Source: Candidatus Babeliales bacterium
Lineage (GTDB): Bacteria > Babelota > Babeliae > Babelales > JACPOV01
Reading direction: 5' to 3'
Assembly: GCA_050250855.1 (NCBI GenBank)
Contig: JBFWNW010000002.1
Location: forward strand, 64,001-128,000
DNA: 64,000 nt
Under the pieces are notes generated by a model, which worked only from the letters and a program-made list of their open reading frames with translations, did not search any database and was not told where the DNA came from. Positions 9,658 through 58,574 of this stretch are shown here, piece after piece; positions within the stretch are counted from its first letter, which is position 1; each line of letters starts with the position of its first letter. Made by a program: the position numbers and the translations under genes.

Positions 9658-10044
9658 CTACTTTAATTCTACTTCTTGTTCTTCTAAACTCTTGTAAAAA
9701 GCAGAGCGTAGCCATACTTTATCAACTGCTTGAAGAGCTACAGCAAATACTGCATAATGAAATGCCGCCCATAAACCCATATAAGAACTCCTCTGCAGAG
9801 AACTTTTGATATCGCGACGGCCAAGGTCACTTATTGTGCATATAGTAATTGGAAACAAAAATTTATATGCCGCCCATGTCCCTACCATAATTGATGCAGC
9901 ATTTATATTAGCACGAACATTAAAGTACCAATCAGTTGAACTATATTGCTTTGGCAAATTATTTTTTTCACTTGAAAAGGTTGTACTTATTGCAGAAGAA
10001 AGCAATACTACCAATGCAAAATTTTTATAATGAGCTAAAAACAT
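9658..10044 (-). CDS. Hypothetical exported/membrane protein (paralogue of 10176-10814)
   Basis: Signal peptide; shares DWYFNVR and DKxWL...YKSLEEQ with its neighbour; RBS GAGGAG. Confidence 0.75.
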   Translation of the reverse strand: MFLAHYKNFALVVLLSSAISTTFSSEKNNLPKQYSSTDWYFNVRANINAASIMVGTWAAYKFLFPITICTISDLGRRDIKSSLQRSSYMGLWAAFHYAVFAVALQAVDKVWLRSAFYKSLEEQEVELK

Positions 10045-15597: not shown

Positions 15598-16443
15598 TTA
15601 TGGATTTCCATATTTTTTGAATATTTTTTCAACAAAAATACGGTTTGATTCTTTAGAAAGCTTTACTGCATGGTTATAATCAGCATTAAGTTTAAACGTT
15701 TTTTCTTCATTGCAACGATCAAAACCATAGCCTTCCCATAATTTTTCCCAGTTTTCTTTATACTCCAAACAACTGAGAATGGTAGGCAATGCTCCTTCAA
15801 GCCAAGCATCATTTTTTCTATAGATTTCGCACAGTTCAATAAAATCATCTTTATATACCGCTGGTATATATGCTATATCTGCATATGCATGACAGATGCA
15901 ATTATCTCCCCAGTTAGCTTTTAACATTTCCTTATAGCAATCAGGCGTTTCTTTATAAGCATTCTTTAGTGCTTCATAACCAAATTTTGTTGGCCACCAA
16001 CAATTAGTAATTGCTCTAATCCCTTTATTTAAATTAACAGCTTCTCCAATATCATATCTATGCCAATTAACGAATACATGATTAGCGGCCCATATTTTTG
16101 ATAGATCAAAACGATTATAACGCCAAACATTCATTAAGCAATCATCGTGACAGAACAAATACCCTTTATAATCAGGAAATCTTTGCATAGCATCACTAAG
16201 AGCATAATAACTAAATGCCCCTCGCTCCTCTTCAATCGCATAAACGTCAGGACACTCACTTGGTCCATAAAAAATTACTTTAGAAAAATAAGGCTCATAG
16301 ATCTTTTTTAAAAATGAGATTGCTTCATAATGAGCAAAATTAAAATTTATAATTAAAAGAACATCATCAAACATTTTTCCATAATTAGAAAAAATAATAG
16401 TAAAGACAAAAAAATAAACAATTCTTTTACTAAAAAAAACCAT
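15598..16443 (-). CDS. Exported putative glycosyltransferase resembling the STELLO/DUF288 C-terminal domain
   Basis: DVLLIINFN...IYEPYFSKVIFYGP...GYLFCHDD...NVW...DLSKIW; signal peptide; family recognised by eye. Confidence 0.55.
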   Translation of the reverse strand: MVFFSKRIVYFFVFTIIFSNYGKMFDDVLLIINFNFAHYEAISFLKKIYEPYFSKVIFYGPSECPDVYAIEEERGAFSYYALSDAMQRFPDYKGYLFCHDDCLMNVWRYNRFDLSKIWAANHVFVNWHRYDIGEAVNLNKGIRAITNCWWPTKFGYEALKNAYKETPDCYKEMLKANWGDNCICHAYADIAYIPAVYKDDFIELCEIYRKNDAWLEGALPTILSCLEYKENWEKLWEGYGFDRCNEEKTFKLNADYNHAVKLSKESNRIFVEKIFKKYGNP

Positions 16444-16455
16444 AGGTTTCCCTTT

Positions 16456-17535
16456 CTAGTGTGTTATAGTTTTATAATAGCTATAAGCCTTTTCAAGCAT
16501 AGCTATTTGCTCCGGTGTAAAAATTAACTCTCTTTTGTAATCAGGAATAGTTAATGATAACACGGTATCAATAAAATATTCTGTAGAAAATAGAAATGCC
16601 ATTTCGCTCTTCAAGTAAGCTTTAATATTTTTAATATATTGATCATATTCTTCTTTTTTCATCTTTTTCATAAATTTATATAATTCTCGATTATTTTTAA
16701 ATTTACGGCGATCAATAAAGCAACTTGGCCATACACAATCGGTAATATTTTCTGCACCCCAATAGACTGGTACACAGCCAGAAACTAAACAATCAAAAAT
16801 TTTTTCTGTAATATAGCCAGGAACATTATTACAATTTTCATAACAAATGCAAAATTTATAATTTTTTAATACTGGGCGTTTATGAGGAACCTTGCCTTTA
16901 AATGTCTTAAATTGCGATGCAGGCCAACCACCTTCACCATAAAAATCAAATTTTTTTCTCCTTTTACTTTTTTTCTCAAAAAAATTAATTACTTCTCTTC
17001 GTGCAGAATATAACTGGCCAACTCCTCCTGACATCTTATAGCTTACTATCATAGTGCACAATTTCTTTTGATCAAAAGAAGGAATATCTTTTTCTATTTC
17101 TAATGATGGTTGAGGATAAAAAAACTTTAAAGCTTTATCGTTATCAATCATTGCATCAGATAAATATAAAATTTTTTTACAATAAGGCCGATAATCAAAA
17201 CTATACATTCCTGGCGCAATCAGAGGCGGTTCAAAAACTCCAAAAATAGATTTTTCTTGCAATGTTTTCGGCAAAAGATCGACATTAGGAGTATTTAAAA
17301 AAAAAGCCCCTATACAATTATCATCATTATAATCACTAAGCTCTAAACAGCTTGGATGATAACCAAGATTTTTTATGGCTTGTGCAAAATCGTAAAACAT
17401 CTTCCATCCATTATCGCGACAAGGGTAATTAGGAATATTTAATATTTCATCAGACAAATTAAAATAAAATACTTTTTCTGTTCCAACTACAGTAAAAAAA
17501 GCTAAAAAAACTAATACTCTTATCTTATTATTCAT
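16456..17535 (-). CDS. GT10 fucosyltransferase-family protein, signal peptide
   Basis: YKFCICYEN...GYITEKIFDCLVSGCVPVYWG; FEPP. Confidence 0.88.
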   Translation of the reverse strand: MNNKIRVLVFLAFFTVVGTEKVFYFNLSDEILNIPNYPCRDNGWKMFYDFAQAIKNLGYHPSCLELSDYNDDNCIGAFFLNTPNVDLLPKTLQEKSIFGVFEPPLIAPGMYSFDYRPYCKKILYLSDAMIDNDKALKFFYPQPSLEIEKDIPSFDQKKLCTMIVSYKMSGGVGQLYSARREVINFFEKKSKRRKKFDFYGEGGWPASQFKTFKGKVPHKRPVLKNYKFCICYENCNNVPGYITEKIFDCLVSGCVPVYWGAENITDCVWPSCFIDRRKFKNNRELYKFMKKMKKEEYDQYIKNIKAYLKSEMAFLFSTEYFIDTVLSLTIPDYKRELIFTPEQIAMLEKAYSYYKTITH

Positions 17536-17542
17536 ATATTTT

Positions 17543-18391
17543 CTACGCCTTCAAGTAACTATGTTGTAAATGGGGATTAAAAAAAAGAGCCGCGAGCGCA
17601 ACATTTGATACGCCATGGATAAAATGATCACACTTAGAAAGCAACTGTGTTTCAATCAAAACCTGTTCTCCCATTAATGCTCTATTTTTTACTTGTTGGT
17701 TCCATATATGTAATCCTGTATCATCAAGAGATCGATAGGAGTCATAATAGATCACCTTACCAGGTAATTTCTTTTTTAATTCATCAAGAACTCGTTGATC
17801 ATCAGTCGCTACCAAAAATTGTGCTCCCTTATGCTTAGAAGCCTCTTCTATATACTGCTTAAGAGGAATTCGCGGTGCTTCATTATGGTCTGTTCTGCGT
17901 ACATGAATACCGACCGTCTTTTTACCTTGCATATTTTTGTGATAAAAATCATCAATTTTTGCACTAATTTGAGGTTTTATATGTATATATTTTTCTATAT
18001 ATGAGTTAATAAAAGATCTATATTCATAAGAAAAATTTTGTTCATATCCAATATATCCGCAAGGTATAGCTTGACCATCTGGCGTAACATAATCTTCATG
18101 TATTACATCACCAGAATTATACTGAGCTTCTGAGACGGGATAAAAATAATATTCCCAAATATTATCACTTCCATTATAAGTTCCTGATACTTTATAATAA
18201 GCAGGAGCACGGTTCCAATGTACCACAAGATCTAGCCCTTTTTCTTCACACCATATAAGATGACTGACTACACCAAATATATTAGAAAAAAGACCTGCCC
18301 AGCGACCACCTAAAACATAATGATCTTTTGAAAAAGAGAAAAAACTAAAAAATATAATCGACATACAAAGAAAACAAGAATAATTTTTCAT
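17543..18391 (-). CDS. NodZ/FUT8-like (GT23-type) fucosyltransferase, signal peptide
   Basis: AGLFSN, NIWEYYF, VGIHVRRTD, FLVATDD, LLSKCDHFIHGVSNV. Confidence 0.8.
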   Translation of the reverse strand: MKNYSCFLCMSIIFFSFFSFSKDHYVLGGRWAGLFSNIFGVVSHLIWCEEKGLDLVVHWNRAPAYYKVSGTYNGSDNIWEYYFYPVSEAQYNSGDVIHEDYVTPDGQAIPCGYIGYEQNFSYEYRSFINSYIEKYIHIKPQISAKIDDFYHKNMQGKKTVGIHVRRTDHNEAPRIPLKQYIEEASKHKGAQFLVATDDQRVLDELKKKLPGKVIYYDSYRSLDDTGLHIWNQQVKNRALMGEQVLIETQLLSKCDHFIHGVSNVALAALFFNPHLQHSYLKA

Positions 18392-18426
18392 TAACTATTT
18401 CCTCAACAAAAATCTGTTTTATAGCT

Positions 18427-19311
18427 CTAAGAAATAACCAAGCCTACCTTAAAATCTTCCGTCATTTTTAAATATATGCTTTTTAATAATGGATTAAAAA
18501 ACAATGCACCCAAGGAAACATTTGATACAGAGTGAATAAAACAATCGCACAAAGAAAGTAGCTTTGATTCTATAAGCACTTGCTCTCCCATAAGAGCTTT
18601 ATTATCTACTTGTGGGTTCCATATATGCAATCCTTTATTATTTGAAGAACGATACGCATCATAATAAATAACGTTTCCCTTTAGTTTTTGTTTTAAAATA
18701 TCTAACACTGATTGATCATCGGTCGCTACTAAAAACTGCACATCTTTAAAAGAATTTGCCACCTGAATATAAGCATTAAGAGGAATGCGTGGCGATTCAT
18801 AATGATCTGTTCTTCTAACGTGAATTCCTATTGTTGCTTTACCTTCCATATTTTTTTTATAAAAATCATTCATTTTTTCAAGAATAGAAGGCTTTATGTG
18901 AATATATCTTTGAATATAGGAGTTAATAAATGATCTATATTCATAAGAAAGATTTTTTTCATATAAATAATATAAACATTCAATAGCTTCTCCATCTGGT
19001 GGCGTATAATCTGCGTGCAATTCATCACCAAGTTGATAGTGAGCTTCTGAAACAGGATAAAAATAATATTCCCAAATATTATCACTGCCATTATAACCAT
19101 CACTCATCTTGTAAAAAGAAGGCTCATCTTTCCAATAAACTACTAAGTCCATTCCCTGTTTTTCACACCAAATGAGATGATTAATGACCCCAAGGATATT
19201 TGAAAATAACCCTGTCTGCCGACCTGTCAAAACATAATAATTATTACTTAAACAAGAAAATGATTGTCCTAAGAAAAAAACTCCTATAATAATTTTTACA
19301 AAAAACCGCAT
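18427..19311 (-). CDS. NodZ/FUT8-like (GT23-type) fucosyltransferase, signal peptide
   Basis: Close paralogue of 17543-18391; IGIHVRRTD, FLVATDD. Confidence 0.8.
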   Translation of the reverse strand: MRFFVKIIIGVFFLGQSFSCLSNNYYVLTGRQTGLFSNILGVINHLIWCEKQGMDLVVYWKDEPSFYKMSDGYNGSDNIWEYYFYPVSEAHYQLGDELHADYTPPDGEAIECLYYLYEKNLSYEYRSFINSYIQRYIHIKPSILEKMNDFYKKNMEGKATIGIHVRRTDHYESPRIPLNAYIQVANSFKDVQFLVATDDQSVLDILKQKLKGNVIYYDAYRSSNNKGLHIWNPQVDNKALMGEQVLIESKLLSLCDCFIHSVSNVSLGALFFNPLLKSIYLKMTEDFKVGLVIS

Positions 19312-19314
19312 AAC

Positions 19315-20385
19315 TTATCCTATTTTTTTAAACAAAAAAGAACAATAATCCTTTGCCTTTTCAAGGTTAGTTATTTGTTCCGGGTTAAAAATAAGCTCTT
19401 TTTTATAATCAGGAACTGTTAATGACAAAACTAAATCAATAAAATATTCCATAGAAAATAAAAACGCCATTTCACTCTTTAAATATGCCTTGATATTTTC
19501 AATATATTGATCGTATTCCTCTTTTTTCATATGCTTAATGAAATTGTACAACTCTTGATTATCCTTAAATTTACGCCGATCAATAAAGCAATTTGGCCAT
19601 ACATAATCGGTAATATTTTCTGCACCCCAATAAATAGGGACACATCCTGCAACTAAACAATCAAAAATTTTTTCTGTAACATATCCTGGCGCATTGTTGC
19701 TATTTTCGTAACATATACAAAACTTGTAATTTTTGAGCACTGGTCTTTTGTGAGAAACCTTCCCTTTATAGGTTTTAAATGACGCTGGCCATTCAATACC
19801 ATATACATCAAGCTCTTGGACTCTTTGAGGATCTGAATCAAAAAAATTAACTACACTAAGACGTTGGGTAAATAATTCTCCAGGCCTTTCTATAAATTTA
19901 TAGGTTGCAATAAGTGCACATAGTTTTTTTTCATGAAAATCTGGAATATCCTCTTCAATCTCCAGTGAAGGTTGAGGATAAAAAAATTTAAATCTCGTAT
20001 TGTTATCAATCTTATTATCCAAGAGATATAAAGTTCTAAAAGGATAGAAGGTTGTTGTATAATAACCAGGAGCAATAATAGGCGGCTCCCATAATGAGAA
20101 TAAACATTTTTCAGGAATTAGATTCGGTGAAATATAATTGGGCAAATTAATAAAAAAAGCACCTGCATAATCTTTTGATCCCAGATAATCAAATTCTTTT
20201 ACCTCATAACCAAGTTTTTTTGCCGCCTGAGCTAATTCATAAAAAACTCTATAAGCAGCATCTCTTTGCGGATAAGAAGTATCAGTAAAAGTAACTTCTG
20301 GAAGATTTATATAAAAAATCCTTTGATCAGCTTCACTCAAAAAAACCTGTAATAAAAAAGTAATTCCTAATAAATAGCGCACCAT
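19315..20385 (-). CDS. GT10 fucosyltransferase-family protein, signal peptide
   Basis: YKFCICYENS...GYVTEKIFDCLVAGCVPIYWG; paralogue of 16456-17535. Confidence 0.88.
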   Translation of the reverse strand: MVRYLLGITFLLQVFLSEADQRIFYINLPEVTFTDTSYPQRDAAYRVFYELAQAAKKLGYEVKEFDYLGSKDYAGAFFINLPNYISPNLIPEKCLFSLWEPPIIAPGYYTTTFYPFRTLYLLDNKIDNNTRFKFFYPQPSLEIEEDIPDFHEKKLCALIATYKFIERPGELFTQRLSVVNFFDSDPQRVQELDVYGIEWPASFKTYKGKVSHKRPVLKNYKFCICYENSNNAPGYVTEKIFDCLVAGCVPIYWGAENITDYVWPNCFIDRRKFKDNQELYNFIKHMKKEEYDQYIENIKAYLKSEMAFLFSMEYFIDLVLSLTVPDYKKELIFNPEQITNLEKAKDYCSFLFKKIG

Positions 20386-21857
20386 TATACTATGCCAAAA
20401 TTATACAGCTTTCTCTTTTGATATAGCTGCTGATCATACCTAAAATATTGTGCATTACGCACATATAAAGGATCGTTATGATCAGAACCATCTAAAGGGT
20501 AATTATTCTTAATAAGCTGCTCATAGAATATTTTTTCTTTACCGAGTGAACGGGCTACTTCAGCCAGTTCATTATCGCAGTAATATGATTTATATTCTGG
20601 ATAATAAATATATCCAAACCGTTTATAATACATTCTGCCTATAATAGGATAAATAACATAGTCTTTAGGATCTCTGCCATCTGAAAAATTAAGGATACCG
20701 TCAAAATCAGGAAAATGTTTCAACATTTGACGCACTATAACTACATCATAGTTTTTTACGATAGGTTCAAGATCATCACTTACTACTAAAATAACGTCAA
20801 ACTTATCAATAAAATCATCGATATCTTTATTGTATGCTTCAATTTTTGAACTACTATTGCCAAAGCGATAAGAAAGATTTGGCAAACTATCAAGAATACT
20901 TATTACCTTGGCATTATTCATAGTTGGATCATCTTGATCGCACGTAATTAAAAAATGGTAGGGAATGGTTCCTGATAACATCTCATAGTACTTTTTTAAA
21001 TATTGGAAAAATTGTACCGGACGATAACGCGTTGGAATTTTTATAAGTAGACGAACTAACTGCTCTCTTGACTGCTTGCAAGCATGAAATGCTATAGTAT
21101 CTATATCTTTTTTATATGCACTATAGGGCCTTGGAGGTAAACAATCAACATAAGTACCTTCTTCAATACGGCCCACATCATAGCGCCAATTAATTTTATC
21201 TATTCTCGTGCGTGGTGAAACTACATCAGTTTTGCCCAATCGTATACAGCGACTCTCATAACCATCCCACGCAAGTACCGTTTTATATAACATTTTTTGA
21301 TCAGTGGTCCATCCAATTGCAGTATCATGCCATTCTTTAATCTTTTGAGGGATATCCTCTTTTGTGAAAATCTTAAAAATTTCTGCAAAAATTTTACCTT
21401 TACCTGCAACATAGCACATAGGAATTTCTTTGAATTGTCGTTCAAACTCTTCGCTATCTCGATAAACAACAAAAACATCATCAGCTAAATCTTTAATACG
21501 CTCGGTAAAATAATCTCGAGAAAGAGGTAATAAGTCTATATCAGAAACTATGCAACAATCATTGGGAAATAACAAGGGCAAAAATAAGCGAATACATTGA
21601 GCATATAATGACGTTGGTATGCCTGGAATAGGCTCAAAGCGAATAATGTCACCTAATGATTCATCTATTTCTACACTTTTATCTGCAATTAAAGCTAACG
21701 TTGGCCTTATACCAACTACTTCTTTCCACATCTTGGCAACCAGCGGCCAGTATTCTATATAATTGGGATTTGCATCAGTAGACAAAATAACACGATCAAG
21801 CGTTAAAGCTTCTGCTTTAAAAATACATAAAAAAAGTACTACGTATATTCTTCTCAT
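20385..21857 (-). CDS. Two-domain GT-A glycosyltransferase fusion, signal peptide
   Basis: N-domain IVSDIDLLPL, PMCY, WTTDQ; C-domain KIPTRYRP, SKIEAYN, VVSDD, YYCDNEL. Confidence 0.7.
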   Translation of the reverse strand: MRRIYVVLFLCIFKAEALTLDRVILSTDANPNYIEYWPLVAKMWKEVVGIRPTLALIADKSVEIDESLGDIIRFEPIPGIPTSLYAQCIRLFLPLLFPNDCCIVSDIDLLPLSRDYFTERIKDLADDVFVVYRDSEEFERQFKEIPMCYVAGKGKIFAEIFKIFTKEDIPQKIKEWHDTAIGWTTDQKMLYKTVLAWDGYESRCIRLGKTDVVSPRTRIDKINWRYDVGRIEEGTYVDCLPPRPYSAYKKDIDTIAFHACKQSREQLVRLLIKIPTRYRPVQFFQYLKKYYEMLSGTIPYHFLITCDQDDPTMNNAKVISILDSLPNLSYRFGNSSSKIEAYNKDIDDFIDKFDVILVVSDDLEPIVKNYDVVIVRQMLKHFPDFDGILNFSDGRDPKDYVIYPIIGRMYYKRFGYIYYPEYKSYYCDNELAEVARSLGKEKIFYEQLIKNNYPLDGSDHNDPLYVRNAQYFRYDQQLYQKRKLYNFGIV

Positions 21858-21867
21858 AGCTATCTCT

Positions 21868-23229
21868 TTATTCAGTACATGAAATTAAACAAATATCTTC
21901 TTTGTCTTTGGATAAATCATAAGATTGTATAGTTGAAAGTGATAATACAGTATTTCTTTTTACTATCATGCCACATGAATCTGCAGGAGACATAAATTTT
22001 ACTTGTGAAATAGCTAAACCATCCCATAGATATGAAGCATTTTGCTGAGAAGAAAAATCTTTTTTGGATAGTATACAGAAATTTGATTTTGTATCATGCA
22101 TAGCTTCTGCACAAATTTCTCTATTTTTTAATGTTTCTAAAGCTTTAACGTCTGTAATAACACAATAATAATCATAATTAACATCTTTTAACCAAAAATC
22201 AGGTGATGCATCCTGCGATGGGTTAATAACAAACGTATAATGAGAGTAAAGAGAAGCTAATTGTTCATAATCATTTTTATGAGATAAGTCTCCACAGCAA
22301 ATAACGTTTAGATTTTCATTTTTATATAAACCTTTAAATGCGCTTAATGTCTCTGCAAGTGTATTTGGATCATTAGCATAGATCAAAAAAGGAATAGATT
22401 TTTTTTGATACGATTCTCGATAAGGTCTTTGTTCAAGGGGTTTGTATGCCGACCGGCTGCTAATAACCTTTCTTAAAAATTGTTGCTTTTCCCAGTTAGT
22501 TGCACCATCTGCAATTGGATTATCTTCATTGTAGCGATATAAAATGTTTGGGTTAAATTTGTAATGATTAATTGCCATCTCTATAATTGGATACACCCAA
22601 GAAACGTCCTGTGCCATAGAGAAAAACATACCTTCATGTAGTAAATCTTTAAGAGCAACTTCTCTAAAAAGCCATGCATACATGCAACGAGGAGGACTAA
22701 AATACCAATTTTGACGAATAAGATTACGCTGCTTTACCATAGGAGGAATATCACCAGACCATGGTGCATAACCGTTTCTTGTTCCCCAAAAATTACCGTA
22801 GGTAAACCAAATAGATTCATCACTAAACTGTTCATTGATTGATGATAAAACATCTTTTGTAGTAAAGGTATCATCGCCATCCAAAATTACTGCAATTTCA
22901 TGAGGTTTGCAGAATTTATAAAAGGCATACACAATATTTCTGAGCGCAAGACCACGAATTTCATTTTTAATAAGAGTAACGCGATGATGTATATCATACT
23001 GATCAATAAAAGCCTTTGCATTTGCATAAGTATTATCAGGAGAACAATCATCTATATAAACAACGCGAAATTTTTCATAATCCTGCATAAGAACTGATGC
23101 TAAATTTTCATTGCATACATCTTGATTTTTATAAGAAGGAATAATAACAACAATATCATGCTGATATGCTGCTGCTATAGTATATACTCCCCCTACAAAA
23201 ATTAATCCAAAAAATAGTTTTAAATTCAT
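21868..23229 (-). CDS. GT2 glycosyltransferase, signal peptide
   Basis: VVIIPSYKN, YIDDCSPDNT, ILDGDD. Confidence 0.85.
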   Translation of the reverse strand: MNLKLFFGLIFVGGVYTIAAAYQHDIVVIIPSYKNQDVCNENLASVLMQDYEKFRVVYIDDCSPDNTYANAKAFIDQYDIHHRVTLIKNEIRGLALRNIVYAFYKFCKPHEIAVILDGDDTFTTKDVLSSINEQFSDESIWFTYGNFWGTRNGYAPWSGDIPPMVKQRNLIRQNWYFSPPRCMYAWLFREVALKDLLHEGMFFSMAQDVSWVYPIIEMAINHYKFNPNILYRYNEDNPIADGATNWEKQQFLRKVISSRSAYKPLEQRPYRESYQKKSIPFLIYANDPNTLAETLSAFKGLYKNENLNVICCGDLSHKNDYEQLASLYSHYTFVINPSQDASPDFWLKDVNYDYYCVITDVKALETLKNREICAEAMHDTKSNFCILSKKDFSSQQNASYLWDGLAISQVKFMSPADSCGMIVKRNTVLSLSTIQSYDLSKDKEDICLISCTE

Positions 23230-24167
23230 ACACACTTCCTTATTTGCTTTAAGTACCATTGAAAATTTTTAATATCATTTCTTGAACTATAAATATGGGT
23301 ATTTTCATTAACAAAATCACCTTGCCAGGTAATATAAAAAGGAATTGAAACCTGATTATAATCCAAAAGCATAGGAACTTTCTGCGTATAGTCTTGTTTA
23401 TGAATGCAAAGATCTTTTAAATAGGCTAAAATTCCCAACAACGCTTGTTCATAGCGAGCACAACCAAACCCTTCAGGAGCTGTCCCATCATCAATAAAAT
23501 TTCTTAAATCTTTGCTCATGTTATATAAGGGAGTAATAAAAAGATCTTGTGCTTTTTGCGCTACACCAATAACACCAGCCATAACTGCCTCTTGTGAAAG
23601 TATCCATTGATACTCGGGAGCATCAAGATTAAATTTATTTCTTACATAACGCGTTGTCTGCCATGCAATGGGATGTCTAAATTTACCATTATCACGCTCA
23701 TTACCAATAGTAGCTAAAAAATATCCTTTGTGCTGTATATATTCAAATAAATCATCAAGAGGACGCAATACCGTTGAGCCTGCATCTATCCATAGAACAT
23801 AGGGAAATCTTTCTAAAGCCTGTTTTATAACAACAGGTTTCCATGCAAACCATCCAGGAACCATTCTTCCTGCCTTATTAATTACTACCTGCCTGAGTAA
23901 GTCAGGATGCGTTAATTCAACATTATAAACTGCTATATTTTGAATAGTTTTAAGAAAAGAAATTTGTTGTTCTTCAAGGCCTAAATCAAAAACAGCAATT
24001 TCGTTAATATTGTCATAATTTGTAGCATGTAATGATCCAATTAAATTTAAAAGCTTAGAAAAATATTTTGCATCACATGCAGTACAATAATACTGAGGAA
24101 TAGCTTGTAGAAAAGCCATTCCTCCTAATAAAGCTAACCATACATAAAGAGTCTTTCTTTTTATCAT
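23226..24167 (-). CDS. DUF1647-like putative glycosyltransferase, signal peptide
   Basis: TACDAKYF, VFDLGL, FAWKPVVI, VLWIDAG, RYEQA. Confidence 0.6.
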   Translation of the reverse strand: MIKRKTLYVWLALLGGMAFLQAIPQYYCTACDAKYFSKLLNLIGSLHATNYDNINEIAVFDLGLEEQQISFLKTIQNIAVYNVELTHPDLLRQVVINKAGRMVPGWFAWKPVVIKQALERFPYVLWIDAGSTVLRPLDDLFEYIQHKGYFLATIGNERDNGKFRHPIAWQTTRYVRNKFNLDAPEYQWILSQEAVMAGVIGVAQKAQDLFITPLYNMSKDLRNFIDDGTAPEGFGCARYEQALLGILAYLKDLCIHKQDYTQKVPMLLDYNQVSIPFYITWQGDFVNENTHIYSSRNDIKNFQWYLKQIRKCV

Positions 24168-24173
24168 TACTCT

Positions 24174-24764
24174 TTACTCAAAAAATGTACGAATATCTAT
24201 AGTATCACTGACAATCGTTGTCTGAATTGCATAACGCAAATAAGTATAACGATATTTGAAAGTTGCAAGAACTGGTTCATACCCATATGCAGGTTCTTCT
24301 GTATCATGTACAACAAAAATATCTGCATTATGGCGCAAACGCTCAATATCAACTCTTCGTCTATCACCAGGACGATGATCAACAAAAACCACTGACCAAT
24401 AGCGATCTGTTCCTACAGCATCCCATAATTCTGGCTTTGGATTCTTTGCCCAATCATCTTCAAAAACAGGAATATAGCTAAAATGATGCCAATCTCGTGC
24501 CAAATCTATAAATAAAGAAAGCCATCTTTTATCAGTATCTGTTGTAAGAAGAAACCGTTTTGTTACTGAACAAACAGCATGCAAAAGTGGCGTACTATAA
24601 TCCCCAGATCCAAGTTCTAAAATAGGCCCTTTAGTATTTGCCACGACCGTCATAAGAGGAGCCATGTGAGTCCCATAATTGCCATCACCAAGACGTCTAT
24701 TCGCTTCTATAAACTGGCCATTTAAACTCAATAAAATTATGAATAAAAATAATTTTTTTTGCAT
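24174..24764 (-). CDS. Class I SAM-dependent methyltransferase-like protein, signal peptide
   Basis: ILELGSGDYST, VVFVDH, VVHDTE. Confidence 0.6.
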   Translation of the reverse strand: MQKKLFLFIILLSLNGQFIEANRRLGDGNYGTHMAPLMTVVANTKGPILELGSGDYSTPLLHAVCSVTKRFLLTTDTDKRWLSLFIDLARDWHHFSYIPVFEDDWAKNPKPELWDAVGTDRYWSVVFVDHRPGDRRRVDIERLRHNADIFVVHDTEEPAYGYEPVLATFKYRYTYLRYAIQTTIVSDTIDIRTFFE

Positions 24765-24777
24765 ACTATTCCCTCTT

Positions 24778-25698
24778 TTAAAAAGACCAATCAATATCCC
24801 AAATATCTAAATCTTTAAAGTAACCTTTTCCATACTGTTCAAACCATGCCAATACCTGTTTTTTCCTCCATAAAATTGGTTTATCCCATACAGAAAAATC
24901 AAGAAATTCATAACCTTTAAACCAATATACTGGAGATGGTTGCGTTCTTAATCCTCGCTCATCTTTTGAAGGGAAATAACGCACATTAATTTCCTGGCAA
25001 GATTTTTCTGGTTGCCTGATACGCTCAAGACAGCGATACCACGCTTGTTTTTCTAATAAGTTTTGCCAATTAACAAACTGAAAATGCAAAAGGCCATATT
25101 CATAACCCTGTAAACGGAATCTTTTTCCTTGCACGGGAAAACTACGATTATGCAAAAAGTATGAAGGAAAATTTGAAACACCATCATCGCAAAAAATAAC
25201 AGGTTTATAATCATTGGTCCATTTTGAGTCATCAAAACGATAGCGATCTATTGTTCTCCAGAGTTGAATCCAACAAACCTCCATACTTTCTCCTGGCTGC
25301 AAAGAAAGAATAAGTTTGCGTAAAAAATTATTATCTGAACAGTTTGCAGTAAACATTTCATCCGCATCAATTAAAACAAAATGAGTACCACCAAGTGCTC
25401 TGCCAGCATCTAATAATTTCTGCTTGTTATCACTTTCTTTGCCAACTTGCCAGCCAGATTGTTCATTGCGCAAAATGACAAATTCTTTGCCAAGCTTTTT
25501 ACAACATGATTCAACCAGAATTTTAGTGCTATCTTCAGAATTATCATCAAGCGTAACAAATGCATCAACATAAAAAGACAATGCTTGTAAACATTGCTCA
25601 ATACATTGCTCTTCATTTCTTACTTGCATAAGACTTACTATTTTAGGTGAAGCAGTTAAAGATAAAAAAGTCCCTAACAATAATAATAATTTAAACAT
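24778..25698 (-). CDS. GT2-like glycosyltransferase, signal peptide
   Basis: VRNEE, LDDNSEDST, LIDADE, LLHF. Confidence 0.8.
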   Translation of the reverse strand: MFKLLLLLGTFLSLTASPKIVSLMQVRNEEQCIEQCLQALSFYVDAFVTLDDNSEDSTKILVESCCKKLGKEFVILRNEQSGWQVGKESDNKQKLLDAGRALGGTHFVLIDADEMFTANCSDNNFLRKLILSLQPGESMEVCWIQLWRTIDRYRFDDSKWTNDYKPVIFCDDGVSNFPSYFLHNRSFPVQGKRFRLQGYEYGLLHFQFVNWQNLLEKQAWYRCLERIRQPEKSCQEINVRYFPSKDERGLRTQPSPVYWFKGYEFLDFSVWDKPILWRKKQVLAWFEQYGKGYFKDLDIWDIDWSF

Positions 25699-25711
25699 AT
25701 TCAGCACTCCT

Positions 25712-26560
25712 TTACTGAACAAATGCTTCTTTTTTTAACCAGCTTCCTGCCCAATGGTGCACCGCATATGATTCAGGTTTTTGCCATTCTGAGGCAGGGG
25801 TTCCTCGTTGTTCATAACCACATGGGTAAAAGTAACTAGCGGGAAAAGCTACGATACGAAATTCTTGCATCATAGAGGGAACATATTTTAAAAAAAGTTT
25901 AGTAAAAAACAAAGGACCCGTTCTTAGTATAATCTGAATCTCATGAGATGAATTACGCAACTCTTCAATACATTTTTGCAATAATGGATGATGAGGAATA
26001 GACGCTATTAAAGCATTGTTAAGCTGGACCATATTGGTATCCAAAGGTTGAATACCGGTGTAAAAATCATAAATACATAAAGAATTCATTGATTTTAAAC
26101 ATTCAAAATCGGTATCAATGTAAATACCCCCAAATTGCTCTAAAATTTCATAACGCCAAATATCAGACTTTTCACCATAATTCTTTGAAGCATCAAATAG
26201 ATCTTTATTACGCCACGCAAATGATGCTACATCTGCATCTGTCCATAATTTATATTCCCAGCCAGGATTATGCTTCAACCAGCTTTCTTGATAAGCGCGG
26301 TATTTTTCAGGAAAAGGACTACCAAGCCAAATTTGATGTATTATTTTAGGGATACGAACAGACGTCGGCACAATTCTTGCTGGTGAAAATAAGTTATATA
26401 AACGCTCAAAAAAGTTTTTAAGCATCATATTATTATTCTTTTCAAGAATATGTTTATATGAATCAGCTTGCATTGATGTATTAAAATCTACCCATATAAA
26501 ATTTTCCTGTGCACAAACTAAAGAACTAAAAAGAAACGTTATGCTTAATAGTTTTTTCAT
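25712..26560 (-). CDS. GT32 (OCH1-like DXD) glycosyltransferase, signal peptide
   Basis: IPKIIHQIWLG, KSDIWRYEIL, GGIYIDTD, TGPLFFT, HHWAGSW. Confidence 0.88.
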   Translation of the reverse strand: MKKLLSITFLFSSLVCAQENFIWVDFNTSMQADSYKHILEKNNNMMLKNFFERLYNLFSPARIVPTSVRIPKIIHQIWLGSPFPEKYRAYQESWLKHNPGWEYKLWTDADVASFAWRNKDLFDASKNYGEKSDIWRYEILEQFGGIYIDTDFECLKSMNSLCIYDFYTGIQPLDTNMVQLNNALIASIPHHPLLQKCIEELRNSSHEIQIILRTGPLFFTKLFLKYVPSMMQEFRIVAFPASYFYPCGYEQRGTPASEWQKPESYAVHHWAGSWLKKEAFVQ

Positions 26561-26562
26561 AA

Positions 26563-27594
26563 TTATACCCTTGCTTGTTTATAAGATTTTTCTGGTACAA
26601 CCTTGTGCGCTAAATACCAAAAATATGCTTCCTTTAAACCATTTTTCAATGAAGTTTTTGCTGTCCAACCAAGCTGTGAAATTTTATCAACATTTAATAC
26701 TTTTCTTGGCGTGCCATCTAAAGTATTGATATTAAAAAGGATTTCTCCTGCATACCCAACGATCTCTTTAATTAAAGAAGCTAGTTCGGCAATTGTTATA
26801 TCTTTACCGGTCCCAATATTAATATGACCCGATTCTTCATAACTATTCATTAAAAATAAGCATGCTTGCGCTAAATCATCGACGTATAAAAATTCTCGCA
26901 ACGCTTTACCCGTTCCCCATAAAGAAACTGACGGTTTATTTTCTTCTTTTGCTGCATGAATTTTTGCAATAAGTGCAGGAATAACGTGCGATGATTCAAA
27001 GTCAAAATTATCATGAGGACCATAAAGATTTGTTGGCATACAAGAAATAAATTTTGTACCATATTGCCTGTTATAGCTTTTGCATAAAAGTATGCCGGCA
27101 ATTTTTGCAAGCGCATACGGCTCATTTGTTTTTTCAAGTTCATCGGTCATTAAATACTCTTCTTGTATTGGTTGAGGACAATTACGAGGATAAATGCAAG
27201 AAGAACCTAAAAATAAGAGCTTTTTAACGCCATTGGTATACGATGCATGAATAATATTTGCTTCAATCATAAGATTGTCATAAATAAATGAGGCTGGAAA
27301 ATCATTATTTGCTTTAATGCCGCCAACTTTTGCAGCAGCCAAAAACACATATTCCGGTTTTTCTTGGTTGAAAAAATCATGTACCGCTGCTTGGTTGCGC
27401 AAATCAAGTTCTGCAAAACTACGCGTTATAAGGTTAGTATATCCTTCAGCTTGCAACGCTCGCATTAAAGCAGAGCCAACCAACCCCTGACCTGCTATAT
27501 AAATTTTTGCCTGCTTGTCCATATGTGCTTCACTAACACCAGTAAAAAGATTAAAAATCAAGCCTATACTCATTATCTTTGTTACGTAGTTCAT
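26563..27594 (-). CDS. fcl: GDP-L-fucose synthase with N-terminal signal-like extension
   Basis: [56 protein letters not shown] before ATG 27594; enzyme core starts at 27522. Confidence 0.93.
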
Positions 27595-28783
27595 GAGATT
27601 CTCCTGATAATTTTTGAGCTGCAATGTAGATATTTGAGCCGGTTGCCTCACTTTTTAATTCCCATGCAATTTGTTCTAAATCTGCATCCATCATTAGACA
27701 AACTAAATCTTTAAAGGTTGTTTTTGGCTCCCAACCAAGAAGTTTTTTTGCTTTGCTAGGATCACCCAGTAAAATTTCAACTTCAGTCGGTCTGAAATAA
27801 CGAGGATCAACCGCTATCAACAGCTCACCAGTTTTTTTATTGTATCCTTTTTCCTCAGCACCTATACCGCGCCATTCTACCGTAATACCAACACGTTCAA
27901 ATGCTAATTCAACAAACTCTCTTACGGTATGCGTTTGTCCGGTTGCAACAACCCAATCTTCAGGCTTTTCATACTGTAAAATAAGCCACATTGCTTCTAC
28001 ATATTCTTTGGCATAGCCCCAATCTCGTTTTGCATCAAGATTACCTAAATAAATAGGATCTTTTTTACCTAAAGAAATTGCGGCTACCGCACGCGTAATT
28101 TTTCTGGTTACAAAGGTTTCGCCACGTAAAGGAGATTCATGATTAAATAAAATACCATTTGCAGCAAACATGCCGTAGGCTTCTCGATAGTTTACCGTTA
28201 TCCAATAGGCATAAAGTTTTGCAACACCATAGGGAGAACGTGGATAAAAAGGGGTCGTTTCTTTTTGAGGAATTTCTTGTACGTTGCCATACATTTCTGA
28301 AGTTGATGCTTGGTAAAATTTCGTTGTTTTATCAAATCCGGTTACACGCAATGCTTCTAATAAACGCAAGGTACCTATGCCATCAGCATTTGCTGTATAT
28401 TCTGGCACTTCAAAAGAAACTTTTACATGAGATTGTGCTGCAAGATTATAAATTTCATCAGGCTTAATTTCTTGTATCAAACGAATAAGATTGGTAGAAT
28501 CGGTCATATCACCAAAGTGTAAAAAGAAATTTCCTTTCTTTTTATTATGAGGATCACGGTATAAAGGATCTATGCGATGCGTATTAAACATTGATGAACG
28601 ACGTTTAATGCCATGAACTTCATACCCTTTACCCAGTAAAAATTCAGCCAAGTAGGCCCCATCTTGACCAGTTATACCGGTAATTAAGGCAACTTTTTTC
28701 TTCATACTCTGCTCTCCTGCAAAAAAAGTACTGAATCCTAAGCAAGCTACTGCAACAAAAATTTTTTTATAAGAGTGCTTCAT
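27551..28783 (-). CDS. gmd: GDP-mannose 4,6-dehydratase with N-terminal signal-like extension
   Basis: [53 protein letters not shown]; enzyme core starts at 28705. Confidence 0.96.
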
Positions 28784-28798
28784 ATCCTATTTCCTTTT

Positions 28799-29827
28799 TT
28801 ATGTATAATGATGGCTATTTTTTTCCCGTAATTGATGCAAAATATGTTTTACTTTATCTGTCTGATCTCGCTTCGCTATTAAAAGAACATCATCTGTTTC
28901 TACAACACATAGATCTTCAACGCCTATAAGTGCTACGAGCTTTTTTGGCACCTGAACAATATTATTAGCTGCGTGCAATTCAATAACTTCTGTTTGCTGT
29001 TGGCTATGCTTTTTGTGCAAAGAAAGAAATATTTCTAAGTTGCCAACATCTGACCATGTAAAAGAGCAGGGCTGTACATACACGGCATTACTTTTTTCTA
29101 ATACCGCATAATCAATAGAAATATTTTCGGCATCTTTGTAATCTGCTTTATGTTCAAAAAAATCACATACCACCTTATATAGCTGTTGGGCATGACGATT
29201 GTATTCTTCTATAAAAACAGAACTTTTGGCACAAAAAATACCTATATTCCATAACATGGTATCCATGGTACTATATACATCCGCCAATTGCGCTGAAGGT
29301 TTTTCATGAAAACGAGAAACTTTTACAACATCATTTTTTTGCGCTGCCATTTCTATGTAGCCATAGTTTGTTGCGGGAAAATCAGGACGAATTCCTAACA
29401 ATGTTATGGCATCATGAGCTTGCGAAAATTCTAACGCATTATTTAAATGTTTGGCAAATTGGTCATCTTCTACAATAAAAGCATCAGCAGGTAAAAAAGC
29501 TATAATTGCTGAAGGGTCTTTTTGTTGAATATAAAGCGTAGCCAAAAGTAATGCTGGCGCTGTATTGCGGCCAATTGGTTCAGACAAAATGCCGCCTATA
29601 GAATCTCCCAAAAGACTTTTAATAGAATCAACCTGCTGCTCAGTTGTCATAATAAAAATATTATGTTTTTCAACAATTAAAGAAGCACGCATAACAGTAC
29701 GCTCAAGCAAAGAATTTTGATCATCAAGAGAGAGCAGCTGCTTTGGCTTTTTCTCTCTACTCAAAGGCCATAAACGCTCACCTTTGCCTCCAGCTAAAAT
29801 AACAATATAGCGTGATGTTATATCCAT
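28799..29827 (-). CDS. manC: Mannose-1-phosphate guanylyltransferase
   Basis: ILAGGKGERLWPLSR, EPIGRNTAPA, FHEKP, SIDYAVLEK, WSDVG; no signal peptide. Confidence 0.92.
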   Translation of the reverse strand: MDITSRYIVILAGGKGERLWPLSREKKPKQLLSLDDQNSLLERTVMRASLIVEKHNIFIMTTEQQVDSIKSLLGDSIGGILSEPIGRNTAPALLLATLYIQQKDPSAIIAFLPADAFIVEDDQFAKHLNNALEFSQAHDAITLLGIRPDFPATNYGYIEMAAQKNDVVKVSRFHEKPSAQLADVYSTMDTMLWNIGIFCAKSSVFIEEYNRHAQQLYKVVCDFFEHKADYKDAENISIDYAVLEKSNAVYVQPCSFTWSDVGNLEIFLSLHKKHSQQQTEVIELHAANNIVQVPKKLVALIGVEDLCVVETDDVLLIAKRDQTDKVKHILHQLREKNSHHYT

Positions 29828-29833
29828 AACTAT

Positions 29834-30547
29834 TTATTTTTTTCTTCGTTCAAAAAACAAACGACAAAATGTTTTAGCTGCTTCTTTCATAATTGCTACT
29901 GAAAGCTTTGAATCGCCATGAATTCTATTACGTGCATGAATCGGAATTTCTGTTATACGCAAACCATCCTCTTTAAAGCGATACAGTGATTCAATGCAGA
30001 AAGAAAATCCTTTTGAACTTACTTTTTTATAGACATGAGGCTTTAATTTTTGTACAGAATATAAACGGTAAGCACCGGTACAATCGTACGGCATACCAAG
30101 GCCTCGTTTAATTAAATTTCGCCAAAAGTAAGTAAATGGTAAACGAATTCTTCCCCAACCGCTCATGCCACCGCCATGAATATAGCGTGAACCAATAACG
30201 ACATCATGAACATCTCTTTTTTCAAAAAGAGCAGGAATATAACGCGGATCGTGCGTAAGATCTGCATCCATCGTAATTAAAAATTTATAATTATGTTTTT
30301 GCGCATATTCAAATGCCTGCACGTGAGCCGTTCCTAAACCAAGCTTTGCAGGGCGATGCATAACATGCACAGAAGGATCTTTTTTACTTAAATCATCAAG
30401 AACTTTTCCGGTGCCATCTGGAGAATTATCATCACAAAAAAGAATATCAACATCTTCTTTGTGCTTCTTTATTTCTTCATACAAAATTAAAACATTGTCA
30501 CGTTCATTATAGGTGGGAACAAAAACTAAAACTTCATTTTTTTGCAT
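29834..30547 (-). CDS. Polyprenol-phosphate mannosyltransferase (DPM1-like GT2)
   Basis: PTYNERDN, DDNSPDGT, KLGLGTA, MDADLTH, VIGSRY, DCTGAYRLY. Confidence 0.85.
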   Translation of the reverse strand: MQKNEVLVFVPTYNERDNVLILYEEIKKHKEDVDILFCDDNSPDGTGKVLDDLSKKDPSVHVMHRPAKLGLGTAHVQAFEYAQKHNYKFLITMDADLTHDPRYIPALFEKRDVHDVVIGSRYIHGGGMSGWGRIRLPFTYFWRNLIKRGLGMPYDCTGAYRLYSVQKLKPHVYKKVSSKGFSFCIESLYRFKEDGLRITEIPIHARNRIHGDSKLSVAIMKEAAKTFCRLFFERRKK

Positions 30548-30556
30548 AGTATAAAC

Positions 30557-31909
30557 CTAGTGAATCAATTGGTACGTAATAATAGTATTTTCTTTCTTTG
30601 CACAACGATATGCAACAACCATACCAAAAGCAGAAAAAAGGATAAAGAAGTATTCAAACATCATCCGATAGCGCGCACATCCGTCATGTCCTGTTATAAA
30701 GGAAAAATAAAAAATTGAAATAATGACAAAGCTAACTATAAAATAATATTTTTTATGCCATAGAGCATAAAGGCCGATCATGATAAAAAATAGTTGCAAT
30801 ACCATCCAGAGTAATTGTAAAAATGCAATAATATGTATTAAACGCGATGAAGTGCCATCAACTACATAATGGTAAAAACGATTATATAAAGAGCCTGACT
30901 TTGAAAAAAATGATGTTTCCGTACCTTTTAACGATGGATTTACTAAAAATTTAAGTTGATTCGTATACAAAGCACCTACCGTCTTTATCATGTTATGCAA
31001 CCAAATACGTACAACTAATACTGGTTTTTCATAAAAATAAGAATGCATCAATGCTTTTGGTTTATTCCAACGCGTATGATCATTATGATGTTTACCATCC
31101 ATTAACGTACCGACCTGAACTAATCCTTCTGCCCATGAGATACCTTGGTCATGTGCTATAACTTTTGCCAAAAAATAAAAATAAATATTTTCATGCATTA
31201 AAGGGGCAATTGTCATAGAACCAAATTGATACTTATTGTGTAGCATATAACCAGCAACAGGAATATAAAAACAAAACAAGCACAGTAAAATGGCATTCAA
31301 TACTTTTTGTCTCTGTAAATAAGCATGTAGCCCGACAAAAAAGATTACTATGAAAATATAAAAAAGCGCTACCGGTTTTACCGCAACTGAACAACCATAC
31401 AATAAGCCTGCTAGGGCTAAAGAAGATAAGCTAGACGTTTTAAAATACGTACATAAACGCTCAAGAGAAGCTATCAAGAAAAATGCTAAAAGCACTTCTG
31501 TGAGCATAAATTGACTGTATATTAAAAAACCAAGATTAAAAGATCCTAACAAAACAGTTACTTGTGCAACATGTTCATCAAAAAGCATGTATGCTATGCG
31601 ATAGAGCAACAATAACGCTAAAAGGCTTAGCAAGATTTGTGCAATAATGACCCATGTGTGATGAAAACCAAATAACTTATAAATACTACCTAGAAAAAAT
31701 GGGTACCCTAATGTTTGAACGGGAATAATGGATCCTCGTTGAGGATCCATTAATTGATTATCTGTTGCAAAATAGTTGCCTATTGCCACATATCCTGATG
31801 AATCAAGATCACAATGAGCTTCATAGGCAGGATTTATCCTATACAAACTGTAGGATAATAAACAAAAAATAACTATCGAACAGAGTAAAACTATTTTTGT
31901 ACTATTCAT
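30557..31909 (-). CDS. ArnT/PMT-like (GT-C) integral membrane glycosyltransferase
   Basis: Many TM segments; DSSGY, GYPFFL, LTEVL, VKP, ARYRM. Confidence 0.75.
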   Translation of the reverse strand: MNSTKIVLLCSIVIFCLLSYSLYRINPAYEAHCDLDSSGYVAIGNYFATDNQLMDPQRGSIIPVQTLGYPFFLGSIYKLFGFHHTWVIIAQILLSLLALLLLYRIAYMLFDEHVAQVTVLLGSFNLGFLIYSQFMLTEVLLAFFLIASLERLCTYFKTSSLSSLALAGLLYGCSVAVKPVALFYIFIVIFFVGLHAYLQRQKVLNAILLCLFCFYIPVAGYMLHNKYQFGSMTIAPLMHENIYFYFLAKVIAHDQGISWAEGLVQVGTLMDGKHHNDHTRWNKPKALMHSYFYEKPVLVVRIWLHNMIKTVGALYTNQLKFLVNPSLKGTETSFFSKSGSLYNRFYHYVVDGTSSRLIHIIAFLQLLWMVLQLFFIMIGLYALWHKKYYFIVSFVIISIFYFSFITGHDGCARYRMMFEYFFILFSAFGMVVAYRCAKKENTIITYQLIH

Positions 31910-35409: not shown

Positions 35410-35424
35410 AGGAAAAGTTCCTCT

Positions 35425-58562: not shown

Positions 58563-58574
58563 ATGTAGAAAAAA

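Follow-up and report, generated by a model that had tools for sequence, protein, structure and literature searches.

Leader-bearing GDP-fucose enzymes and glycosyltransferases in a Babeliales operon: a possible glycan assembly line outside the bacterial cytoplasm

A 64,000-nucleotide stretch of contig JBFWNW010000002.1 from a Candidatus Babeliales bacterium (C2:64001-128000, hereafter the window) carries on its minus strand an operon, running from 36609 down to 15598, whose front half encodes leaderless proteins and whose remaining 13 genes all encode proteins with a signal-peptide-like N-terminal leader. Gmd and Fcl, the makers of guanosine diphosphate (GDP)-fucose, are the first two of the 13, and transferases make up most of the rest. 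As far as sequence allows, the data partly support the conclusion that these leaders are real, translated and selected, and that they mark enzymes of extracytoplasmic action. That the 13 proteins are enzymes exported by the general secretory (Sec) pathway, acting outside the cytoplasm on GDP-mannose, reduced nicotinamide adenine dinucleotide phosphate (NADPH), S-adenosylmethionine (SAM) and other sugar nucleotides of the host, is in our judgment about an even bet; we infer the export itself, the cleavage of the leaders, the source of the substrates and the nature of the acceptor.

The genome comprises 1.22 Mb in 11 contigs of 35-37% G+C, and the nearest named homologues of the window's proteins belong to Candidatus Babeliales, Dependentiae and TM6. 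The original prediction had described 13 consecutive leader genes here, and this holds: 13 open reading frames (ORFs) adjoin one another on the minus strand from 28783 to 15598, with gaps of at most 35 nucleotides (nt) or overlaps. The three leaders that it quoted are also present, at the starts of the 490-residue protein unk490 (21857), the GT32 protein (26560) and the fucosyltransferase GT10a (20385).

The first of the 13 genes, all of which lie on the minus strand, is gmd, encoding GDP-mannose 4,6-dehydratase (27551-28783), and the second is fcl, encoding GDP-L-fucose synthase (26563-27594). Gmd scores 611 bits against TIGR01472 (equivalog cut-off 415) over residues 30-371 and matches PF16363 with E = 4e-157. 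Fcl scores 470.7 bits against NF047922, slightly under the equivalog cut-off of 500, over residues 28-331, and shares 53-74% identity with its counterparts encoded after gmd in relatives. Because the alignments begin at residues 30 and 28, the leaders lie outside both family models. Gmd is usually a soluble cytoplasmic protein that starts at a Rossmann strand; the protein encoded here departs from this by a 26-residue leader (ATG at 28783) ahead of the canonical start (ATG at 28705). The Fcl leader begins at ATG 27594, with the canonical ATG at 27522, and its coding start overlaps, in another frame, the last 44 nt of gmd (27551-27594). At its other end, Gmd extends ~35 residues past the family model, and its nearest metagenomic relatives are tailed too.

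The assignments of the other eleven genes differ in firmness. The GT32-type glycosyltransferase (25712-26560), with its DXD sugar-binding region, matches PF04488 (E = 9e-17) and, in part, PF12919, the TcdA/TcdB glycosyltransferase domain (E = 4e-11). Two GT2 genes follow at some distance from one another: GT2a (24778-25698, start ATG 25698) is GT2-like, with weak matches to PF13704 and PF00535 under their cut-offs, and GT2b (21868-23229, start ATG 23229) matches PF00535 with E = 2e-15 and carries a C-terminal extension of ~200 residues. Between them lie a 196-residue protein with the class I SAM-methyltransferase fold (24174-24764, start ATG 24764) and the 313-residue unk313 (23226-24167), and beyond GT2b lies the two-domain unk490 (20385-21857). 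Pfam gave nothing meaningful, even at a relaxed threshold, for the methyltransferase-fold protein, for unk313 or for either half of unk490. The first of these has 1652 relatives in its family, and an AlphaFold2 model with a predicted local distance difference test (pLDDT) score of 89 finds, by Foldseek against the PDB, MnmM, COMT-type O-methyltransferases, TrmR, WbdD and MycF as best matches (E = 2e-5 to 3e-4). Its conserved residues include Glu50, Gly52 and Gly54, in keeping with a glycine-rich SAM loop; the match of its profile to PDB sequences is weak (E = 0.013). On the basis of a DUF1647/GT8-like Atlas lead, unk313 is probably a glycosyltransferase of GT-A fold. For unk490, GT2-like Atlas leads suggest two GT-A-like halves, residues 268-490 resembling small viral glycosyltransferase models, and this lead is supported by the occurrence of the halves as separate leader-bearing genes in three relatives (G001, G013 and G033).

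The fucosyltransferases proper comprise two pairs. GT10a (19315-20385; PF00852, E = 9e-16) and GT10b (16456-17535; E = 1.4e-15) are 59% identical and score 57.9 and 58.4 bits in the C-terminal catalytic domain, where the cut-off is 23.9. Between them stand NodZa (18427-19311) and NodZb (17543-18391), NodZ/FUT8-like proteins of 67% mutual identity. NodZa matches PF05830 under the cut-off (E = 8.5e-5), and NodZb slightly above the cut-offs of both PF05830 (29.0 bits, cut-off 28.3) and PF19745 (28.3 bits, cut-off 27.6). For NodZb, an AlphaFold2 model based on 23 members of its family (pLDDT 89) retrieves human FUT8 (E = 3.5e-11), NodZ (6.5e-10), AtFUT1 and POFUT1 by Foldseek, and His163 and Arg165 are invariant across the family. 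The fold search thus lends support to a FUT8/NodZ-type assignment, with GDP-fucose as the predicted donor and α-1,6 as the predicted linkage. The operon closes with a STELLO-like glycosyltransferase (15598-16443; PF03385, E = 1.8e-8, above cut-off), of which the genome has further leader-bearing paralogues at C1:330549 and C2:48496. The labels first given to gmd and to the GT10, GT2, GT32, STELLO and NodZ/FUT8 genes are those of profile matches, under the cut-off for GT2a and NodZa, while the DUF1647-like label stands as an Atlas lead only.

The leaderless half of the operon (28799-36609, minus strand; annotated with Pfam and NCBIfam) begins with wecB (35425-36609) and wecC (34084-35409), followed by a fused ADH/GFO oxidoreductase (31906-34083), a multi-pass GT-C of PMT_2 type (30557-31909), a DPM1-like polyprenyl-phosphate glycosyltransferase (29834-30547) and manC (28799-29827). 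The boundary between the two halves had been called sharp. It is so for the five soluble enzymes, none of which has a leader; the multi-pass GT-C had been omitted from the earlier list. A scan of 28700-37000 returned 24 promoter-like sites, as compared with a shuffle mean of 32, and 6 terminator-like sites, as compared with 5.5, and is not used in the argument.

Leaders were called throughout with heuristics of our own (an any-leader rule, and a strict rule with a length cut) applied to ORF N-termini, rather than with a trained predictor. In all 13 proteins an n-region of net charge +1 to +3 precedes an uncharged run, whose lengths are 10, 13, 14, 15 (five times), 16, 19, 20, 24 and 26 residues. 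Nine of the 13 runs are thus of 16 residues or fewer, two are of 19-20, and two are of 24-26, the last two including trailing polar residues by what is a crude measure of our own. A small-residue (-3,-1) site after the h-region is seen by eye in 12-13 of the 13, eight of them with Ala at -1, and is found automatically in 10, although such sites also arise often by chance, as the first helix has one in 18 of 27 multi-pass proteins. The automatic finder of h-regions and cleavage sites fused several leaders with the first β-strand and so overstated lengths; from it we use the charge comparison alone, in which 12 of the 13 leaders carry more positive charge on the N-flank than on the C-flank. The strict rule passes 11 leaders, the other two failing the length cut alone. 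Lipoprotein signals were considered and rejected, since none of the 13 leaders shows a canonical lipobox by eye; the Cys in NodZa follows Ser-Phe-Ser, a misfit.

The start sites argue that the leaders are translated. A Shine-Dalgarno (SD) motif of at least 4 nt stands ahead of 10 of the 13 leader starts; genome-wide, such motifs precede 618 of 1086 ORF starts, as against 170 of 1086 internal control positions. The statement that every gene starts with a leader is correct for 13 of 13, with the qualification that the maximal ORFs of fcl, GT2a, the methyltransferase gene and GT2b extend upstream of the leader, whose start is an internal ATG (27594, 25698, 24764 and 23229, respectively). Each of these four internal starts has an SD before it, including AAGGAG 8 nt upstream in GT2a and AAGGA 7 nt upstream in GT2b. 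In fcl, AGGAG precedes the leader ATG by 6 nt, and the canonical ATG has a weak GGTG at 14 nt. The exception is gmd, in which a start downstream of the leader is strong as well. Both of its starts look usable (AAGGA before the leader ATG, AGGAG 8 nt ahead of the canonical one), and gmd may here have two starts, giving an exported and a cytoplasmic form. Contigs of four sequencing runs gave no usable sequence variation in the leaders, most of the sequence in them being conserved Gmd parts of other organisms; short identical pieces in two runs of small share say nothing about habitat. No RNA data set was listed for 26500-29000.

Leaders recur on Gmd in relatives, for which we used 61 Babeliales genomes (G-numbers). 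The Gmd set comprises 30 copies from 27 genomes; the copies of G015, G016, G028, G045 and G057, the second copies of G039 and G056, and the leaderless gmd of G051 stand outside it. Fourteen of the 30 copies bear a leader, 15 do not and one is ambiguous. Because 10 of the 14 leader-bearing copies have no Met at the canonical start, the leader must belong to the protein in these, unless a non-AUG codon within the first strand is used. In the genomes examined for it (G001, G004, G013, G023a and G039), the gmd SD sits ahead of the leader start. On a maximum-likelihood tree of Gmd the leader label needs five changes, at least two of them forced by well-supported branches, and a clade of nine copies that includes this genome (support 100/99) is leader-bearing throughout, with divergent leader sequences. 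G023 and G040 each have two gmd genes, a leaderless one in a wec-manC-gmd-fcl block and a leader-bearing one beside leader-bearing STELLO-like genes, and in the tree the leader-bearing copies of the two genomes group as sisters (88/89). A leader is also found on ManC in G033 and G059, and on Fcl in G004, G013 and G021. G059 has, on its contig C3 (L026), two pathway fusions as well, a leader-bearing Gmd-Fcl of 742 residues and a WecB-WecC of 832 residues.

The families encoded downstream behave similarly, with 26 of 32 homologues in relatives flagged as leader-bearing. GT32 orthologues are flagged in 7 of 8 cases, GT2b homologues in 6 of 9 and unk313 orthologues in 3 of 3, and the GT2a orthologue of G013 bears a leader. 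The wecB-wecC-oxidoreductase-DPM1-manC block is conserved in relatives too, and here the oxidoreductase and DPM1 copies are never flagged; the few flags on wecB and wecC trace, by eye, to the first strand of the Rossmann fold or to an extended ORF, apart from one G060 protein of 25% identity. The picture at greater distance depends on the family. A leader is flagged on 4 of the best 120 Gmd homologues (116 unflagged) and on 16 of 98 members of the methyltransferase family, mostly the nearest relatives, and the leader thus reads as an add-on relative to these two families at large. The NodZ-like family alignment has a leader in 21 of 23 members, and among the best 120 GT10 homologues the heuristic flags 88, those with names being Babeliales, Dependentiae, TM6 or Chlamydiae. 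Fusions of GT2 with GT10, of ~600 residues, also occur among the GT10 homologues (P0145, P0156, P0173, P0184, P0207, P0223, and L070 of G039); of the first six, four pass the leader heuristic (P0145, P0156, P0207 and P0223).

A second glycan cluster of the same genome, just upstream of the window (C2:36000-55999; L073), serves as an internal control. Here leaders sort by strand: 11 plus-strand genes are leaderless and four minus-strand genes are leader-bearing. The leaderless genes encode nine soluble proteins, a 903-residue membrane protein in which a Wzx-like domain is fused to GT4, and one ORF overlapping that fusion; the soluble proteins include a GT4, a methyltransferase-GT2 fusion, two DPM1-like GT2, methyltransferases and an asparagine-synthase-like enzyme. 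The leader-bearing genes encode a NodZ-like, a GT2-like and a STELLO-like protein and a TylF-like O-methyltransferase.

The machinery that Sec-type export would require is encoded in the genome, with SecY matched at E = 5.5e-99 and signal peptidase I (Peptidase_S26) at E = 9.6e-35. A type II secretion/type IV pilus cluster lies within the window ~30 kb from the operon (57381-64000, plus strand; PF11356, PF00263, PF03958, PF11104), with genes for a GspC-like protein, an 881-residue secretin, PilM and a second secretin of 852 residues that runs past the window end; secretin matches number two genome-wide. Three TLC/NTT nucleotide-transporter genes imply that host nucleotides reach the inner membrane. 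Export of a folded, cofactor-loaded Gmd by the twin-arginine (Tat) route was considered and rejected, as TatC was not found in this genome, which is 95% complete.

We propose that the 13 proteins would leave the cytoplasm through Sec-type signal peptides and form a line for building or tailoring a glycan, operating in the periplasm, at the surface of the cell or, by way of the type II secretion system or vesicles, further out. Host GDP-mannose, NADPH, SAM and sugar nucleotides could reach the enzymes of a Babeliales-type parasite living inside a protist. According to the papers cited, in the parts on which we draw, Chromulinavorax replicates in the host cytoplasm (PMC6561590), while Babela lives in a vacuole, and its signal-peptide-bearing ankyrin proteins are presumed to reach the amoeba through type II secretion, its sole secretion system (PMC4378268). 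Once exported, Gmd and Fcl would make GDP-fucose on site from the GDP-mannose of the host, and the donors would be used by the four fucosyltransferases (two GT10, two FUT8/NodZ-like), some five to six GT-A-type transferases, the STELLO-like protein and the putative O-methyltransferase. In the cytoplasm, WecB, WecC, the oxidoreductase, ManC and the DPM1-like enzyme would most likely, jointly with the GT-C, supply the priming step on an envelope acceptor by way of a lipid-phosphate sugar, and the exported enzymes would extend that acceptor. More specifically, Babeliales might possess a Golgi-like periplasmic or surface compartment, with a GT-C-primed acceptor, an exported line of Leloir enzymes including the makers of GDP-fucose (and ManC in some species), host substrates, and a gmd whose two starts serve both sides of the membrane; this fuller picture we offer tentatively and as rather doubtful. 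The original inference of extracytoplasmic action thus gains from the leaders, their SD motifs, their recurrence on orthologues, the charge and short h-regions, and the presence of SecY, signal peptidase I and a type II secretion cluster, all of which would suit a Golgi-like line and secretion into the host equally.

A number of observations weigh against the proposal that the 13 enzymes are exported and work on host substrates. Leader-like N-termini are frequent in this genome (483 of 1086 ORFs, ~44%, by any rule, and 366 of 1086 by the strict one), and our heuristics give false positives on Rossmann first strands. The 44% of coding sequences with signal peptides reported for Chromulinavorax destructans, in the portion of that paper used here, matches this share (PMC6561590). 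No other run in the genome is as long as this one of 13 (the next are of 11, 9 and 8), and yet 73 of 5000 gene-order shuffles reach that length; with ~44% of ORFs leader-like, we rejected run length as the chief evidence. The run is modestly unusual, and it is the identities of the enzymes that stand out. The manC of this operon is leaderless, and the canonical, leaderless gmd start has a strong SD, the public copy of this Gmd being called from it as a leaderless protein of 384 residues. The nucleotide-sugar transporter family PF03151 was not found in the genome; PF04142 was not found either, although this is uninformative, since the control matched in no genome. Without the TatC that was sought, Gmd would need to take up NADP after unfolded export. 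In relatives, too, leaders and pathway do not always coincide: in G001 (same genus) and G002 the leader is present on Gmd and absent from Fcl, and G005 and G006 have a leader-bearing GT10 with leaderless Gmd and Fcl, from which it follows that the exported set is not always self-sufficient. GT10 goes only partly with leader-bearing Gmd, being present in 9 of 13 genomes that have the latter and in 4 of 14 others, these genomes being kin and not independent. Finally, a WecA-like transferase and the Wzx-like flippase fused to GT4 make a conventional cytoplasmic assembly route available in the genome.

Such a route is the basis of an alternative in which the leaders are uncleaved re-entrant or N-out anchors that would tether Gmd, Fcl and the transferases to the cytoplasmic side of the membrane as a metabolon, ManC supplying GDP-mannose and a flippase exporting the lipid-linked glycan. 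The leaderless manC directly upstream would then feed gmd and fcl in the classical manner, WecA-like and Wzx-GT4 genes are present in the genome, and PF03151, a nucleotide-sugar transporter family, was not found there; moreover, Gly-Gly or Gly in several h-regions could break the helix, and four of the 13 uncharged runs, at 19-26 residues, are longer than the rest. The features of the leaders themselves point the other way. By the positive-inside rule, the net-positive n-regions of all 13 would place the C-terminal domain of a spanning segment outside, nine of the h-regions are too short for a membrane span, and small-residue cleavage motifs follow most of them; it is the n-region charge and the short h-regions that lead us to favor Sec signal peptides over cytoplasm-facing anchors. 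Nor do the ordinary GT4, GT2 and methyltransferase proteins of the same genome carry such a segment, the pairing of leaderless with leader-bearing gmd genes in G023 and G040 is difficult to account for with two cytoplasmic products, and genes of the Wzy_C and Bac_transf families were not found in the genome. We regard this cytoplasmic arrangement as unlikely.

Two further alternatives accept export in whole or in part. In one, the transferases and the methyltransferase would be exported while translation of gmd, and possibly of fcl, begins chiefly at the canonical start and leaves the product in the cytoplasm, such that the exported fucosyltransferases need host GDP-fucose or another export route. 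The AGGAG-preceded ATG at 28705 and the public 384-residue call would fit this, as would the leaderless Fcl of G001 and G002 and the combination seen in G005 and G006. Among the N-termini read in the nearest Gmd clade, the canonical Met is kept in G000, G001, G002 and P0002-P0006, G004 of the same tree clade lacking it. Yet the upstream gmd frame is open and leader-like in all nine members of that clade despite their divergence, the G001 SD precedes the leader start and not the internal one, the strong SD of fcl likewise belongs to the leader start, and in most leader-bearing Gmd (the 10 of 14 above) there is no canonical Met to start from; we consider this division of labor quite improbable. 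In the other, the enzymes would be effectors, secreted by the type II system or in vesicles into the host cytoplasm or vacuole, there to fucosylate or otherwise glycosylate host molecules and not a bacterial envelope glycan. A signal peptide followed by type II secretion is the proposed route of host-acting ankyrin proteins in this phylum, as the consulted parts of two papers describe it (PMC4378268, PMC6561590). Two leader-bearing WD40 proteins share the window with the type II cluster, and the GT32 protein matches in part the TcdA/TcdB glycosyltransferase domain family. Known host-modifying glycosyltransferase effectors, though, add a single sugar, whereas eleven transferase-type genes and a methyltransferase in one operon suggest the stepwise assembly of a complex glycan. 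The operon is moreover shared with a lipid-phosphate-sugar synthase and a GT-C that would act on the bacterium's own envelope, and no host-targeting domain was seen in the Pfam scan. A role directed solely at host molecules therefore strikes us as having little likelihood.

Several neighboring features may be recorded. Divergent from the operon, and just ahead of it, lies a second multi-pass, PMT-like GT-C (36741-38222, plus strand), whose match to PF02366 (E = 1e-4) is slightly under the cut-off. Beyond it are the tandem seven-blade WD40 proteins of eukaryotic type (39605-41041 and 41371-42810, plus strand), whose first 30 residues, with the leader, are identical. On the far side of the operon, a GH1 glycoside hydrolase (11772-13208, plus strand; E = 4e-68) has a leader-like N-terminus and is preceded by three small leader-bearing proteins without a Pfam family, including paralogues at 9658-10044 and 10176-10814. 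Some 9 kb past the window end, a second Glycos_transf_4 gene of WecA/MraY type (C2:137399-137830) may encode the transferase that initiates a lipid-linked glycan. The second-longest leader run of the genome, 11 genes at C1:381417-393962 (L074), is of another kind, comprising small proteins with very similar leaders of Met-Lys-Lys-Leu-Leu type and near-identical tandem paralogues.

It is textbook knowledge that bacterial nucleotide-sugar synthesis and Leloir transferases are cytoplasmic because the periplasm holds neither the donors nor the cofactors. An obligate intracellular parasite bathed in host metabolites could escape that limit. If the export reading is correct, Dependentiae would assemble, or at least complete, a surface glycan bearing fucose and methyl groups beyond their own cytoplasm and draw on the host for it, which would help to explain the export signals on nearly half of the Dependentiae proteome and would overturn the rule that confines bacterial Leloir glycosylation and nucleotide-sugar conversion to the cytoplasm. 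Such an "outside" glycosylation line would be directly testable, with the paired gmd genes of relatives and the possible two-start gmd as natural experiments, and the presence of Chlamydiae among the named leader-bearing GT10 homologues suggests that the phenomenon may reach other intracellular bacteria of protists. A literature search found no published account of leader-tagged glycosyltransferases or GDP-fucose enzymes in Dependentiae/TM6. The searched text of PMC6561590 contains neither "glycosyl" nor "fucos" (0 occurrences); its supplements and the categories of its Fig. 3B, which fell outside that search, might list such enzymes.

Two bacterial precedents come closest. The first is Chlamydia trachomatis, which, according to the portion of the paper drawn on here, secretes glycogen-synthesis enzymes (GlgA and others) that use host uridine diphosphate (UDP)-glucose in the inclusion lumen (PMC4829429). 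As here, an intracellular bacterium would externalize normally cytoplasmic sugar-nucleotide enzymes and have them fed by a host nucleotide sugar, though in our case this is read from sequence tags and the lifestyle of relatives. As that account has it, Chlamydia delivers the enzymes by type 3 secretion, the receiving vacuole obtains its UDP-glucose by way of a host transporter, and glycogen is what is made, whereas the leaders here are of Sec type; and unlike the chlamydial set, the present one includes the interconversion enzymes Gmd and Fcl (with ManC in relatives), its product presumably being a fucosylated, methylated heteroglycan. The second is the sialyltransferase Lst of Neisseria gonorrhoeae, an outer-membrane enzyme described, in the excerpts on which we rely, as transferring host cytidine monophosphate N-acetylneuraminic acid (CMP-Neu5Ac) onto the bacterium's own surface glycan (PMC4324315, PMC4668040, PMC10827150). 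It shares with the proposal made here the placing of a Leloir-type transferase outside the cytoplasm on a host-made nucleotide sugar, and differs from it, on those excerpts, as a single enzyme with a single capping step and no donor conversion, compared with 13 enzymes including two donor makers. Within what these sources cover, Sec-tagged enzymes of nucleotide-sugar conversion and a multi-enzyme line are absent from both.

The enzymes themselves have more familiar settings. In the classical manC-gmd-fcl pathway to GDP-L-fucose, known from colanic acid and O-antigen clusters, all three proteins are soluble and cytoplasmic and have no N-terminal extension; the operon described here has the same enzymes in the same order, except that its Gmd and Fcl carry leaders. 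In the eukaryotic endoplasmic reticulum (ER) and Golgi, PMT-type GT-C enzymes use lipid-phosphate mannose, after which lumenal GT10 and FUT8-type enzymes are fed by nucleotide-sugar transporters. The resemblance extends to the parts (GT10, a FUT8-like fold, GT32, STELLO and a PMT-like GT-C) and to the logic of a lipid-linked step followed by Leloir enzymes beyond the membrane. Eukaryotic Gmd and Fcl are cytosolic, however, and GDP-fucose is imported by a transporter; in contrast to the ER and Golgi, the PF03151 transporter was not found in this genome, and the leaders look cleavable rather than being long type II anchors.

A last parallel is viral. Chloroviruses presumably encode their own GDP-mannose dehydratase and GDP-fucose synthase. 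Giant viruses and chloroviruses are described, in the parts of the papers used here, as encoding glycosylation machinery (PMC5408694, PMC9614988), and the Atlas neighbors of unk490 and unk313 are largely viral clusters. In both settings, a parasite of protists brings its own sugar-nucleotide enzymes and transferases to bear on precursors of the host cytoplasm. The viral enzymes, on the other hand, are made directly in that cytoplasm, whereas a cellular parasite of the kind considered here would have to export them first.

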